From a plasmid: a stretch of 64,000 nucleotides of DNA. The position numbers were made by a program, and so were the translations under genes. The notes under the pieces are model-generated. The model worked only from the letters and a program-made list of their open reading frames with translations. It searched no databases and was not told the DNA's origin. The DNA lies in sequence record CP113993.1; one strand, written 5' to 3'. Position 1 is the first letter of the stretch; every line of letters starts with the position of its first letter. This document shows, piece by piece, positions 38,059-48,111 of this stretch.

Positions 38059-38496
38059 TCATTTTACCCTCCCGGATTTTACTGGCCACAACTGTCTCAG
38101 TAACGCCCTGTCCTCCTGTGACGCATTGCCAACCTGGTGCCGCCGGTTCCCATCTGTACGTCGAGAAGGTTTGTATCTCCTCGAAGCTACAAGCGGCAGG
38201 CTGACACTGTTAACACGGACCTCATAACAGGTCGTGGAACGATGTTCGCTCCGGACTTTACGTACATCACTATCGATGATGTGTGATTTTTTTATCAGGT
38301 ACGACAGTTGAAAGGAGGCCTTTCTTTCACTCAAACGGAATGCTCTGGCAATATCATTTCGGTTCACCCATGTGTTTCTGTGAAGGCACCACAGCGCCAC
38401 GATGATATATATTGGCTGGTCAGCATACATCTCCATACCTCCGGGGATATAGCACCCCTCATGATTATTCTGCGCAGGCTTTTTTTGCTTTTTCAT
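38059..38496 (-). CDS. CaiF/GrlA-family transcriptional regulator (paralog 1)
   Basis: QPIYIIVALWCLHRNTWVNRNDIARAFRLSERKASFQLSYLIKK matches the GrlA core PLYILVSLWC...WISRNDIAEAF...ASFIITYI. Paralogous to 47686-48111. Confidence 0.75.
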   Translation of the reverse strand: MKKQKKPAQNNHEGCYIPGGMEMYADQPIYIIVALWCLHRNTWVNRNDIARAFRLSERKASFQLSYLIKKSHIIDSDVRKVRSEHRSTTCYEVRVNSVSLPLVASRRYKPSRRTDGNRRHQVGNASQEDRALLRQLWPVKSGRVK

Positions 38497-38624
38497 TCTG
38501 CTCCCTGTTTATCTTATTAGTACCGGCATCATAATCTTGTGTCAGCGTAAAATAGAAATACCGGAGACACTCTTTGACATGTACAAATAATGGTTATTTT
38601 AATAAATAAAATAATAACACAGTA

Positions 38625-39038
38625 TTATTTTTCTCTGTTTAACTCCTCCATCACGGATAATAAAACCACAGCAGCATAACAATCTCCGGCAACAGCCTTC
38701 TTATACAGATGGTGCCCCCTGCACCCCAGAAAAAAAAATAAAGAAATAATAGCTTCCGGATATTCTTTTTGCAAGTCAGACCAAAGTTGCCGTCTTTTAT
38801 TTACTCCCTCCGGGGAAGCATCACCCAATAGGGGATAAAAGTGTTCCTTGGCGTCTTTCAGTTTTCCGGAACTTATACCACTTTTTTCCCTGACCAACCA
38901 TTCCCGCATCTTTTTATGCGGAAAATTTGACAGAATGCTACTAACACGCCGCCGAATTTCTCGCTCCGAAGACAGCCATGATTCCATCAGACCTCCATCA
39001 TTTTTGTGGTACTGGTTTTTTCTGGTATTGAAGTACAC
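38625..39038 (-). CDS. Hypothetical protein (137 aa, probable start at the internal MESWLSSE), no recognisable family
   Basis: ORF only. Moderately AT-rich codon usage consistent with its neighbours. Located between the GrlA-like paralog 1 and the ORF-free stretch. Confidence 0.35.
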   Translation of the reverse strand: MYFNTRKNQYHKNDGGLMESWLSSEREIRRRVSSILSNFPHKKMREWLVREKSGISSGKLKDAKEHFYPLLGDASPEGVNKRRQLWSDLQKEYPEAIISLFFFLGCRGHHLYKKAVAGDCYAAVVLLSVMEELNREK

Positions 39039-40837
39039 CCCACAGATTGTGATTAGTAAAACTCACTAGACTAAATCTGTTACCATTTTTCCCTGAGGAA
39101 AAAATTACTATTTCAACTATGGCAGGTACGATCCTGACCATCAGCTGAAGATTACTCCAGCAGCCCCTAACTAAATTAATAATATCTACTATCATCTGCT
39201 ATCATTAGTCTCCCGATATAAACGTGAGATTAGCGCCTCCAAGAATCAAAAGGATCACTACTCACAATCAGCTATCACACCAAGTTTCCTAATGTTGTCA
39301 TGTTATCAATAACGTTCTGTATCAGTCTTACACCACCAAAATAATCGGTTGCCTCTTCTTGATACCTGTCAGTTAATCCTTCTGTGCCATCTGATTACCT
39401 TAAATTTTTTACTGTTCAAGTAGGTAGAAAATCATAACGCAATAATTGTTATAGAGCACGATGGATTATTTGTAAAATCACAAGCCATGCACCTGATAGT
39501 TTTATTGGCTCTACACGGCATGAATTAGATCTGAACATCCCCCCCCCCCACATCATATCCTCAACAAAATCAAGACTAGGGTTAGGAGATTAAACAATTA
39601 AAGAAAAAATATTTTATCGTAAAGATAAAAAAATAAAATCAACAATAATGCATACATATCATTTACAAAAATGCAAAATTCGACATCACCATAAGAAAGA
39701 CTTATCACTGGCAATTTCATATCAGTTATATTTGTTGATATAAGTCAAAAATGCACTAATAACAATATGGTACTGTTTTGTTGGTTAACAGTCATAGTCT
39801 GTCACTATAAGATATCTTAACCTTTCCTCGACGTTATCATCATACAAATACAGGTATAACCTTTTTTATATAAGGTGAAATTTTCTCCCTTTCTTATAAC
39901 AAAAAAGTATAAGTAATCAGATTAAAGGTACACTTTCATGGAAACGCTGAGTACAATAACGGGGACGGTTCATGAACTGTTCTATGACAGAAGCCCAGTG
40001 ATCGTCCCCCTGTAATGTGGACACAACCCTAAGCGATGTTTTGTTTTTCAACTTGTTCCGACCCGAGACCATCACAAACGCAATAACGTCGCCAACATTC
40101 GTAATCGCATTCGATAGAATTAAATACCACTGTCCTCCTTACTTTCTGTGCTGGCAAAATTCTCTTCGTCGATACAGTCCATTTTCAGAGAGTGGAAAAA
40201 CTCTCTGCTAAGGCACTAACGTAACAGCAACCTTTGCGCTCATGCTGCCCCGCAGGTCATGCCGCTTCAATAATACCTGATAGGCCGCTAAACCGTACAA
40301 ACCCCCAGTCTGTATGAATAATCACATTTTCCGAGCGTTTACTTCACCACAATGCAATCTGCTGTGTATCACATGCCAGTTGTGCCGCCATCTGTCAGGG
40401 CAACGACCTGTCAATGACTGCCCGCAACCACAGGTTGATAACCACTGACAGATAAAGCCAGCAGATTTTCTGATACTGGCAGATTATACCCACGGTAGTT
40501 GACAGGACTGAATTGAGGTAAGACTTCTATCCGCCGTCCCTGACGATACAGGCTGGCAGCCACCATTTTCATGCTGAACTTCAGCCCCAGACATACAATT
40601 CATCGGTCAGGGGGACGTTCCGTAACGTTATTTCGCCGGATAAAAAGCACAACTGACGGCAATATCGCAGGAGCGGTGAAATTAATGGCGCATATTGGTG
40701 TGTAAATGCCTGTTCCTGATCCAAAAATAATCAGTGGCAAAAAACCGATTAAAGTCAATGTCAAGTTCGTAAAAATCCACAAAGGTCGTATAAGACGATG
40801 AACTTGTTTTCTGGCTAAAGAAAACCCCGCTTCGGCG

Positions 40838-46564: not shown

Positions 46565-46597
46565 AAAACTGACATTCACGAATGTCAGTTTTTCTTC
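46565..46597. terminator. Rho-independent terminator (aaaactgacatt-cacg-aatgtcagtttttcttc), bidirectional in form
   Basis: 12-bp stem, A-run upstream and T-run downstream. Lies 30 nt after the cargo gene stop. Confidence 0.7.
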
Positions 46598-46969
46598 ATA
46601 ACGTGTGCCTTCCCGGATGTGAAAATCATTATGCAGGCGAGTATAAAAGTATTTAAATACCATATAGATCATTAAACTTACAGTGAAAAATAATAAGGTG
46701 CGCCTCAGGTAAATAGAAAAAACTTTGCATGCAATGACAACCAGCCTTAATAAAATAGCCGCTTCTACTCTGACCATCTGATATACTTTTACTGGTGATA
46801 GCCACTGAATGTATACGTGACACCAACAATAAATACCGGTACATATTTACTCTGTACACTTTCAGAATCAGTATACGCTCTTTATGAAACCGAAAAATAT
46901 AACCGTAAAAGATATGAAAGAATTTTTACGGGACATAAGTCTCATAATTTATTTGTTAAAGGGCTCCTT

Positions 46970-47689
46970 TCAGATGACATTCTTCAGAGAAGAATCATCC
47001 GATAAGCTTATTGCTGTCCGTTGCAATTCATCACGCAGACAAATCCCTCTATATAATGCCACACGTGAGGGTGGCATATCCAACCCCTTCATGGCCTGCC
47101 TCCAGTACAGACTGACCGCATTTTCACTGAGCCGCCATTGTCTTGCAACAGAAGTACCGGAAAGACCTGTAGAGAGTAAAACTAACAGCGCATATTTTTC
47201 TATGGACACGCCAACAGGCAGCTGATGCCACATATACTGCTTTAGCGTCAACAACAGTTTCTCAGAACCAGCCGCTCCCACAGGAAATCGGCACGCTACG
47301 CTGTCCGTTTTCCTGAAGCGATACCATGCTTCAGGTTCACCACTCAAATGCTCTCCAGGCTGAATAAGTGGCGTAAGCCTATCCCGCTGTAGATAATCTG
47401 TCAGCCTGAAATATTGCATGACACACCGGTCTGTAAAATATAATCGATCCACTACAATCAGCACTTTCCGGCTCGTCAGCCAGGGCTGCAGATGATAAAA
47501 TAAAAAAACATGCTCATGGGGACGCAGACATAAAACCAGCCCAGCGTCAGGGTATCGGGATAAAAACACTATCAGCTCAGTAATATTACTGCACAGCGTG
47601 GTATCGATGCCAGTGTATCGGTTCTGGATTATGGCTATTACAGCCCTGCAGTCTGCCCAGAAATCGCCATAAATAATAATGTGTTTCAT
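46970..47689 (-). CDS. LuxR/FixJ-type HTH regulator with a degenerate receiver-like N-terminus (239 aa)
   Basis: C-terminal ALLVLLSTGLSGTSVARQWRLSENAVSLYWRQAMKGL fits the LuxR-family HTH pattern. Its start overlaps the GrlA-like paralog 2 stop (ATGA), implying translational coupling. Confidence 0.55.
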   Translation of the reverse strand: MKHIIIYGDFWADCRAVIAIIQNRYTGIDTTLCSNITELIVFLSRYPDAGLVLCLRPHEHVFLFYHLQPWLTSRKVLIVVDRLYFTDRCVMQYFRLTDYLQRDRLTPLIQPGEHLSGEPEAWYRFRKTDSVACRFPVGAAGSEKLLLTLKQYMWHQLPVGVSIEKYALLVLLSTGLSGTSVARQWRLSENAVSLYWRQAMKGLDMPPSRVALYRGICLRDELQRTAISLSDDSSLKNVI

Positions 47690-48111
47690 GCTTTCACCTT
47701 TCTGGATTTAACCGGCCATAGTTCCCTCAGCAATACCCTCTCCTCGTGCGATGCATTTCCAACCTGGTGCCGTCTGTTTCCTGCGATACGTACAAAAGAA
47801 CGGTATTTTTGTGAAGATGATTGCGGCAGGCGGACATTAATAATCCGAACCTCATAGCAGGTTGTCAGCGAACCTTCACTTCGGGTCTTACGGATTTCAC
47901 TATCAATAATATGCTTTTTATTCATAAGATATGACAGCTGAAACGAGGCCTTCCTGTCACTCAGTTTAAAAGCTCTGGCAATATCATTCCTGTTCACCCA
48001 TGTATTTCTGTGAAGACACCATAAAGCTACGATGATAAAAAATGGCCAGTTAGCATAGATCTCCATACCCTCCGGGAGATAACGTCCCTCGTGATTATTT
48101 TGTTTTGTCAT
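47686..48111 (-). CDS. CaiF/GrlA-family transcriptional regulator (paralog 2)
   Basis: About 60% identical to 38059-38496, with the same WPFFIIVALWCLHRNTWVNRNDIARAFKLSDRKASFQLSYL core. Confidence 0.75.
   Translation of the reverse strand: MTKQNNHEGRYLPEGMEIYANWPFFIIVALWCLHRNTWVNRNDIARAFKLSDRKASFQLSYLMNKKHIIDSEIRKTRSEGSLTTCYEVRIINVRLPQSSSQKYRSFVRIAGNRRHQVGNASHEERVLLRELWPVKSRKVKA

Follow-up and report, generated by a model that had tools for sequence, protein, structure and literature searches.

Two diverged copies of one regulatory cassette

We have analysed a stretch of plasmid DNA of 64,000 nucleotides (nt) from sequence record CP113993.1, called the window throughout, with regard to two paralogous genes for regulators of the CaiF/GrlA family, here named E1 and E2, and the gene F, directly downstream of E2, which specifies a SprB/StdF-like regulator. 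E1 (38059–38496; 145 amino acids) and E2 (47686–48111; 141 amino acids) are both carried on the minus strand, exactly where a preliminary description of this DNA had located them (as paralogs 1 and 2, respectively). Their identity, estimated there at ~60%, is higher: BLASTP yields 71% over 137 amino acids (E = 1e-75). The family assignment stood up to alignment, as E1 scores 87.5 bits and E2 77.9 bits on Pfam PF07180 (CaiF_GrlA; cut-off 25 bits), and residues 11–123 of E1 match GrlA (PDB 4KT5, chain C; E = 3.4e-15) across the GrlA-type core that had been singled out earlier. As candidate CaiF orthologues, both were rejected (41.9 bits for E1 and 36.4 bits for E2 on NCBIfam NF008549; cut-off 140). 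F (46970–47689, minus strand) encodes 239 amino acids with a predicted receiver-like N-domain and a LuxR-type helix-turn-helix (HTH); its start overlaps the stop codon of E2 in the ATGA junction (47689–47686) noticed before.

The source plasmid is pESI or pESI-like, from Salmonella (S.) Infantis: positions 37000–48600 of the window are 100% identical to more than 100 Salmonella megaplasmids of 280–320 kb (IncFIB/MPF_I) from poultry and human S. Infantis. The genes lie in an island of ~18 kb common to pESI and the chromosomes of S. bongori, with the same gene order and 86–91% identity. The NCBI pipeline labels both E1 and E2 “CaiF/GrlA family transcriptional regulator”, and F either “transcriptional regulator” or “hypothetical protein”.

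The two related genes are real, as had been proposed, but a decayed partner copy after E1 had been missed, and it is the whole cassette that is duplicated. DNA similarity between the E1 and E2 loci continues for ~180 nt past the stop codon of E1, to position 37879. The ATGA junction is kept after E1 (AAAATGATGAAA) and is followed by MMKPVFIYGDYRPDYRAV...F*, the decayed N-terminus of an F protein (tblastn: 36% identity to F residues 1–64, E = 2e-4). This pseudogene remnant of the F-type partner of E1 (37877–38062, minus strand) runs into a stop after 38 codons. The remnant is decayed in S. bongori too; therefore, the loss of F from copy 1 predates the split between pESI and S. bongori. Upstream, a weaker colinear similarity extends the repeat to ~2 kb (39912–37879 versus 49079–47499). 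In copy 1, this upstream part holds an open reading frame (ORF) of 120 amino acids (38625–38987, minus strand) of no known family and with no Pfam match. It has been lost from copy 2 except for a 3′ trace (48244–48321, minus strand), recognised by colinear weak DNA similarity and tblastn similarity to 38634–38711.

The decay is complementary: copy 1 keeps the 120-amino-acid ORF and E1, without F, while copy 2 keeps E2 and F. The duplication is old, since the synonymous divergence (dS) between E1 and E2 is ~1.6. Judged from these alignments, E1 and E2 would be the “E” parts of two diverged direct-repeat copies of a regulatory cassette of adhesin loci, predicted to comprise the GrlA-like E and the SprB-like F, preceded by a small ORF and, further upstream, by a conserved element.

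F, a SprB-like protein with a putative degenerate receiver

F aligns end to end with the SprB model NCBIfam NF011848 (195.8 bits, E = 7e-58) and is 43% identical, colinear and full-length over 242 amino acids, to the genuine SprB of SPI-1 (pathogenicity island 1 of Salmonella) from S. arizonae (E = 1e-65). It was rejected as a SprB orthologue, the 195.8 bits comparing with an equivalog cut-off of 508. The LuxR-type HTH read earlier in F is confirmed by a family profile, which matches the HTH domains of DosR, VraR, EvgA, RcsB, NarL and GerE (E = 1e-8 to 1e-5, best 1.2e-8); the single F sequence scores 13.3 bits on Pfam GerE, below the threshold.

The AlphaFold (AF2) model of F is of low confidence (predicted local distance difference test, pLDDT, 49 overall and 62–84 for residues 1–80) and has an alternating beta–alpha N-domain. 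Its best Foldseek matches are all NarL/FixJ response regulators, at TM-scores of only ~0.3. A degenerate receiver-like N-terminus, as previously ascribed to F, is suggested only by this low-confidence model and its fold matches. There is no phospho-acceptor Asp in F; Leu55 is found at the predicted end of strand beta3, within the family-wide LCLRPHEH motif, in an alignment column that is hydrophobic in 23 of the 23 aligned F-family members and Asp in none. Because Leu55 replaces the acceptor Asp, the receiver-like domain of F would not be phosphorylatable at the canonical site. VpsT is a NarL/FixJ-type regulator with a non-phosphorylated receiver domain, and F has a string, WLTSR, which we take to resemble the cyclic di-GMP (c-di-GMP) motif of VpsT; such a motif was ruled out for F, as the string is not conserved across the family.

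The F family is small: an exhaustive HMMER search of 1.84 billion representatives returned 61 clusters at E ≤ 1e-3, and word-indexed homologue searches returned two proteins with F and 11 with the family alignment. The clusters looked up are overwhelmingly from Salmonella and nearly all annotated “hypothetical protein”; StdF was not identified among the cluster representatives looked up. All plasmid records with a tblastn match to F (146 out of 146) are likewise from Salmonella. A locus search with a narrower F-family alignment gave only genuine sprB in the SPI-1 of two subspecies.

The E–F pair recurs, mostly beside adhesin genes

In every non-SprB lineage examined, at least six in all, a CaiF_GrlA gene is located directly upstream of the F-family gene. 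Genuine sprB is the exception: it is located after hilC, without a GrlA-like gene upstream. Adhesin genes accompany the pair in five of six lineages. At loci L008-11 (E and F of 145 and 238 amino acids), these are an ESPR giant adhesin and an HMW1C-like glycosyltransferase; at L022-23 (156 and 272), a two-partner secretion (TPS)/ESPR exoprotein and HMW1C, on an IncI-like plasmid backbone; at L017-20 (155–162 and 274–282), a StdB-like chaperone–usher operon from which the pair is divergent. At L024 (153 and 292), the pair forms the 3′ end of a std-type operon in the order subunit, usher, chaperone, 380-amino-acid gene, E, F; the L024 usher reaches 1199 bits with the StdB model, the chaperone has StdC as its best match, L024 E matches E1 at E = 6e-13 and L024 F matches pESI F at E = 1.3e-15. 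L021 (163 and 233) has no adhesin gene within 6 kb.

The stop codon of E and the start codon of F form an ATGA junction in five cases (pESI copies 1 and 2, S. bongori, L008 and L022), overlap by 8–11 nt in L017, L019 and L021, and are separated by a 4-nt gap in L024. The identities of E and of F drop in parallel across the lineages (59–61% with 40%, 41% with 30%, and 35–40% with 25–28%), and a long partnership is therefore indicated. The 120-amino-acid ORF of copy 1 shows a weak similarity (E ~ 1e-5) to the ORF that precedes the L022 cassette. A small upstream ORF common to the cassettes was considered and rejected, no relation being detectable (hhalign probability 1%). Since the upstream small ORFs of different cassettes are unrelated, only E and F form the conserved core. 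These comparisons suggest that the GrlA-like/SprB-like pair is mobile, as a regulatory cassette joined to adhesin loci of many kinds, chiefly in Salmonella.

Some further observations concern these loci. The E–F cassettes in L022 (1–9301) and L008 (1–9151) come after operons of giant ESPR/TPS exoproteins, HMW1C-like glycosyltransferase and DUF2919, and the L022-type F cluster is present on hundreds of Salmonella contigs. In L017 (6923–7261) and L021 (6890–7096), which belong to a distant branch of the cassette family, the E–F pair is followed by a GrlR-like gene (Pfam GrlR 23.6 bits; cut-off 26.8); the order grlA-like, sprB-like, grlR-like hints at a shared origin with the GrlR/GrlA module of the locus of enterocyte effacement (LEE). 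The GrlR-like query has no match in the window, and Pfam GrlR has none in a scan of nine island ORFs of at least ~120 amino acids.

The PeaP unit and the export locus

As described before, E1 is upstream of an RfaH-like gene and an autotransporter gene. The latter (31656–37001, minus strand) encodes PeaP, an autotransporter adhesin of 1781 amino acids, which we identified from PMC13228587, a 2026 preprint, by its position between an RfaH homologue and an EAL gene. The RfaH-like NusG paralogue directly upstream of peaP (37081–37560, minus strand) matches Pfam NusG and scores 72.4 bits on NCBIfam RfaH (cut-off 124), and the gene downstream of peaP (30781–31539, minus strand) specifies an EAL-domain c-di-GMP phosphodiesterase (NCBIfam PRK10551, E = 1e-61). 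An S. Typhimurium IncC plasmid carries a fragment bounded by IS26 and IS3 with the upstream element, the 120-amino-acid ORF, E1, the rfaH-like gene, peaP and the EAL gene, without E2–F and without the exporter described below. Copy 1 is thus tied to the PeaP unit, because the fragment moves both without E2–F or the exporter. Within peaP, there is a G9 tract (33957–33965); on IncC plasmid CP082740.1 it is G8 and peaP is split at this very point into two coding sequences, a difference consistent with frameshift phase variation or with sequencing error.

The canonical ops site of RfaH (GGCGGTAGnnTG) is absent from the island; four one-mismatch ops matches in the window, at chance level, are all outside the island. 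The leader of the rfaH-like gene (37561–37700) holds GGCGGGTTTCGTCAGGGCGGAGC, kept in S. bongori, which is not the canonical ops site.

PeaP mediates CsgD-independent biofilm formation at 37–42 °C (including avian body temperature) and colonisation of the chicken gut (PMC13228587). Eight tested deletions of chromosomal global regulators left PeaP biofilm unaffected, deletion of arcA or arcB moderately reduced it, and deletion of rpoS or rpoE reduced it strongly in strains that were also poor growers (PMC13228587). The regulation of peaP is stated to be “so far unknown”, with pESI-encoded regulators suspected, and possible interference with SPI-1/SPI-4 functions is raised (PMC13228587). The preprint names only the RfaH homologue and the EAL protein in this region; it makes no mention of the CaiF/GrlA genes, and its supplement includes neither CaiF, GrlA nor LuxR. 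Our literature search found no paper linking pESI regulators to SPI-1.

The export locus adjoins E2–F. It consists of a gene on the plus strand for a putative exported cargo (45960–46535) with two internal repeats and a leader of the double-glycine type (MKKLTSMELDLIAGS/G), both read from the translation; a gene for an HlyD-type membrane-fusion protein (44602–45891, minus strand; Pfam HlyD_3, NCBIfam type_I_hlyD); and a gene for a C39-peptidase ABC exporter (42497–44599, minus strand; Pfam Peptidase_C39, ABC_membrane and ABC_tran), the translation of which includes the motif ECGQACL. The cargo has no Pfam or NCBIfam match. Its leader ends in …ELDLIAGS/G and its repeats read …LNID…SAN…HYDV…G…AGPG; at ~170 amino acids once mature, it is unusually large for a microcin.

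A conserved upstream element with a palindrome, and a variable poly-G tract

Each cassette copy is headed by a conserved non-coding segment of ~145 nt. In copy 1, the element (39555–39700, minus strand) is ~570 nt upstream of the 120-amino-acid ORF; in copy 2 (48735–48880, minus strand) it is ~625 nt upstream of E2. Its 32-nt core, AATCTCCTAACCCTAGTCTTGATTTTGTTGAG (39560–39591 and 48740–48771), is identical in both pESI copies, whereas the flanking coding DNA is only 71% identical and the paralogs differ with a dS of ~1.6. Just upstream of the core sits a palindrome, TTATC-N5-GATAA (39614–39628 and 48794–48808), the arms of which are invariant, while each of the four copies in pESI and S. bongori has a different spacer. 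The window contains four such palindromes, with 0.09 expected, and three of these are within the island. The third (43773–43787) is inside the ABC-exporter gene and is present in S. bongori too; it may function as an internal site or owe its conservation to coding constraint alone. There are exactly two elements per pESI record.

The pattern fits an operator for a dimeric factor, for which F would be the natural candidate, and the shared element, on its conservation, is a plausible common input for both cassette copies. We rejected a Fur box as the identity of the palindrome, the best match of 10 out of 19 positions being background. There is no GATC cluster upstream of either copy, where the density equals the island background of ~2.2 per kb. 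Comparing pESI with S. bongori by phylogenetic footprinting gave no information, as intergenic regions are 82–90% identical, the same as coding DNA.

A diverged element occurs on CP054717.1 (~13625–13730; positions 5001–5105 of L025), ~565 nt upstream of the gene for an inverse autotransporter of 1944 amino acids. It has intact arms, a fifth spacer and two transitions in the core, and IS1182 is located just upstream.

Copy 1 has a poly-G tract, G11 (39539–39549, minus strand), 10 nt downstream of the 32-nt core; copy 2 lacks such a tract. G10, G11, G12 and G13 are found among complete plasmids and G7–G8 in related contigs, while S. bongori has the tract in interrupted form. As a slipped-strand switch or rheostat, it may act on the unit on the PeaP side, with the caveat of homopolymer sequencing error.

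Conservation and surroundings of the island

Synteny with S. bongori spans window positions ~49147 to at least 35653. The sole interruption is an IS4-family insertion in pESI (40832–42148, plus strand), defined by the synteny break points and by IS4 transposase models and absent from the S. bongori island; it sits between the exporter and cassette copy 1, and its transposase ORF appears truncated or split. Between pESI and S. bongori, the dN/dS ratio is lowest in the island for E1 (0.08; 145 codons, dS 0.40), followed by 0.09 for the cargo, 0.13 for the 120-amino-acid ORF, 0.15 for the ABC exporter, 0.17 for HlyD, 0.22 for the RfaH-like gene, 0.23 for F and 0.29 for E2. These ratios indicate that all island genes compared evolve under purifying selection.

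On the left of the window, there is a siderophore cluster including a TonB-dependent receptor and a salicyl-AMP-ligase-type enzyme, which, judged by ORF sizes, we take to be the yersiniabactin cluster reported for pESI; on the right there is a chaperone–usher fimbrial operon. Positions 37000–41927 (the rfaH-like gene, E1, the 120-amino-acid ORF and the IS4 segment) recur at 99.9% identity on NZ_AP038229.1, a 158-kb E. coli plasmid from chicken; hence, part of the island has moved between genera. Rfam matches in the window include group II intron domains (28635–28776 and 52762–52848) and the Hfq-binding small RNA isrN (30066–30202), just downstream of the EAL gene region.

A probable StdE/StdF-type pair and its possible targets

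The preliminary description had regarded the E2–F pairing as reminiscent of, and distinct from, GrlR–GrlA, and GrlA-family activators outside LEE-type islands as poorly characterised. Neither view can be maintained: a GrlA-like/SprB-like pair is known as StdE/StdF, and for this sub-type the second statement is out of date (PMC3264584, PMC6173445, PMC6735912). The names StdE and StdF were newly given by López-Garrido and Casadesús to STM3025.1N and STM3025, respectively, in the std operon (PMC3264584). StdE is 40–50% identical to GrlA and CaiF, and StdF is related to SprB as well as to a protein from an Enterobacter fimbrial cluster, the gene for which comes immediately after that of a CaiF homologue (PMC3264584). 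Both proteins bind DNA and control hundreds of genes, including those of SPI-1, flagella and conjugation, repressing SPI-1 and motility (PMC6173445). StdF is an auto-activator of the operon and binds a distal upstream activating sequence of std (−338 to −303); together with Dam methylation, StdE/StdF constitute a bistable switch (PMC6735912). On the strength of the std-type proxy L024 and the published homologies, the pESI genes very probably represent a pair of the StdE/StdF kind and not a new GrlR–GrlA-like arrangement.

The reading that we favour, and regard as reasonably probable overall, is that this StdE/StdF-type cassette regulates the PeaP unit. E1, E2 and F would be DNA-binding transcription factors. 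F, which can be produced from copy 2 only, would act as a LuxR-type dimer with a pseudo-receiver not phosphorylatable at the usual site and would probably bind the TTATC-N5-GATAA element that heads both copies. Such binding would switch on the cassette of F itself and, in trans, the copy-1 transcription unit, which continues into the rfaH-like gene and peaP. E1 and E2 may act at separate promoters, as StdE does, and the RfaH-like protein would aid transcription through the 5.3 kb of peaP; effects on the export locus or on the chromosome are possible extras. For peaP taken by itself as a regulatory target of E1, E2 or F, we see about even chances.

Several points weigh against this reading. The unrelated IncF Salmonella plasmid CP054717.1 has the element without E, F or an RfaH-like gene, so that the element may be a promoter or leader of the ordinary kind, or be recognised by a factor from the chromosome. 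Scans for sigma-70 promoters and terminators performed no better than on shuffled sequence. Since GATC sites do not cluster here, that part of the std mechanism which depends on Dam does not apply. The link to Std rests on the proxy L024 (25–41% identity) and on published homology statements, not on StdE/StdF sequences, and the low-confidence structural model of F may weaken the reading further. Finally, E2–F adjoins the export locus, which makes the exporter itself a possible target, albeit a doubtful one.

The preliminary description had gone further in that direction, proposing that E1, E2 and F are dedicated regulators of a microcin-like export locus bracketed by them, with cargo, exporter and autotransporter under one input. 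The position of E2–F immediately beside the cargo, HlyD and ABC genes, kept in S. bongori, agrees with it, as do the conserved third palindrome inside the ABC gene and the upstream element shared by both copies as a common input. However, that palindrome may be held by coding constraint, and the conserved element is upstream of the regulators and not in the 68-bp divergent region between the cargo gene and hlyD. Moreover, cassettes of other lineages are beside adhesin genes (or, in L021, without a recognisable partner) and never beside a peptide exporter, and copy 1 travels with peaP without the exporter. Control of PeaP thus appears more likely from these arrangements than control of the export locus, and the exporter proposal as a whole would seem rather unlikely. 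Slightly better placed, by analogy, and compatible with regulation of the PeaP unit, is the view that E and F chiefly reprogramme chromosomal genes (SPI-1, flagella, biofilm), local control being secondary; we consider it possible without expecting it. The regulon of StdE/StdF comprises hundreds of genes, with SPI-1 and motility repressed (PMC6173445), SprB, to which F is 43% identical, has 23 chromosomal targets (PMC5013294), and the PeaP authors themselves raise interference with SPI-1/SPI-4 (PMC13228587). Against this, identity to the characterised relatives is 25–43% and the DNA-recognition residues have diverged, and such cross-talk does not exclude local control.

If F were instead an anti-activator that sequesters E in the manner of GrlR and GrlA, the ATGA coupling would fix the proportion of the two proteins for complex formation, and both the tight stop/start junction kept in every lineage and the co-divergence of E and F would be accounted for. 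By analogy with Std, this is improbable: F is unrelated to GrlR and has a LuxR-type DNA-binding domain of its own, and StdE and StdF bind different sites independently, StdE alone activating hdfR (PMC6735912). There is also no GrlR-like ORF in the window, the pair of the L017 and L021 lineages is followed by a GrlR-like gene distinct from F, and E1 persists under strong selection without an adjacent F. The same persistence contradicts the notion that E1 is a functionless leftover of the duplication, which the decay of its partner gene might have suggested: E1 has the lowest dN/dS ratio in the island (0.08) and is intact in the IncC fragment as well as in pESI and S. bongori, which makes it the gene under the strongest constraint and not a relic, and we give that notion hardly any credence.

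Multidrug-resistant S. Infantis is spreading in poultry worldwide, with pESI as the driving force. E1, E2 and F, together with one candidate operator and one variable homopolymer, are nominated here as local control elements of peaP, with F passing nearly everywhere as nothing but a “hypothetical protein”. The StdE/StdF precedent predicts auto-activation, bistability and cross-talk with SPI-1 and motility. On a more speculative note, and with little expectation on our part, the plasmid might carry a phenotypic switch of three layers: positive feedback of E2–F via the element on both cassette copies, the hypermutable poly-G tracts of copy 1 and peaP, and the RfaH-like antiterminator in support of peaP transcription. 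Were this true, PeaP-ON and PeaP-OFF subpopulations would arise, expression of chromosomal invasion and motility genes might drop, as with StdEF, and the switch would contribute to the success of epidemic S. Infantis in colonising poultry.

Comparison with known systems

The predicted fold of F has its best matches in the NarL/FixJ regulators DosR, RcsB, EvgA, VpsT and NarL, the likeness of the N-domain coming from the low-confidence model alone; unlike NarL/FixJ regulators with an acceptor Asp, F has Leu55 in its place. With SprB, the LuxR/UhpA-type activator of SPI-1, it shares the motifs IYGxxW, PHEHV and LQRT. E1 and E2 belong to the same Pfam family as CaiF, the activator of the carnitine operon, but no cai or fix genes are near them. 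GrlA of the LEE in enteropathogenic and enterohaemorrhagic E. coli is of that Pfam family too and has the same conserved HTH core as E1. The GrlR–GrlA system differs from the pESI pair, which has neither a GrlR partner nor the context of a LEE or a type III secretion system, and a LuxR-type partner instead.

The closest parallel is StdE–StdF, where, as in pESI, a GrlA/CaiF-like gene is immediately upstream of a SprB-like one on the same strand in a horizontally acquired adhesin locus. The std pair is located at the 3′ end of a chaperone–usher operon, whereas the pESI pair is upstream of an autotransporter unit with an RfaH-like gene. Unlike in std, no clustering of GATC sites points to a Dam/HdfR switch in pESI, and the pESI pair has been duplicated with complementary decay.

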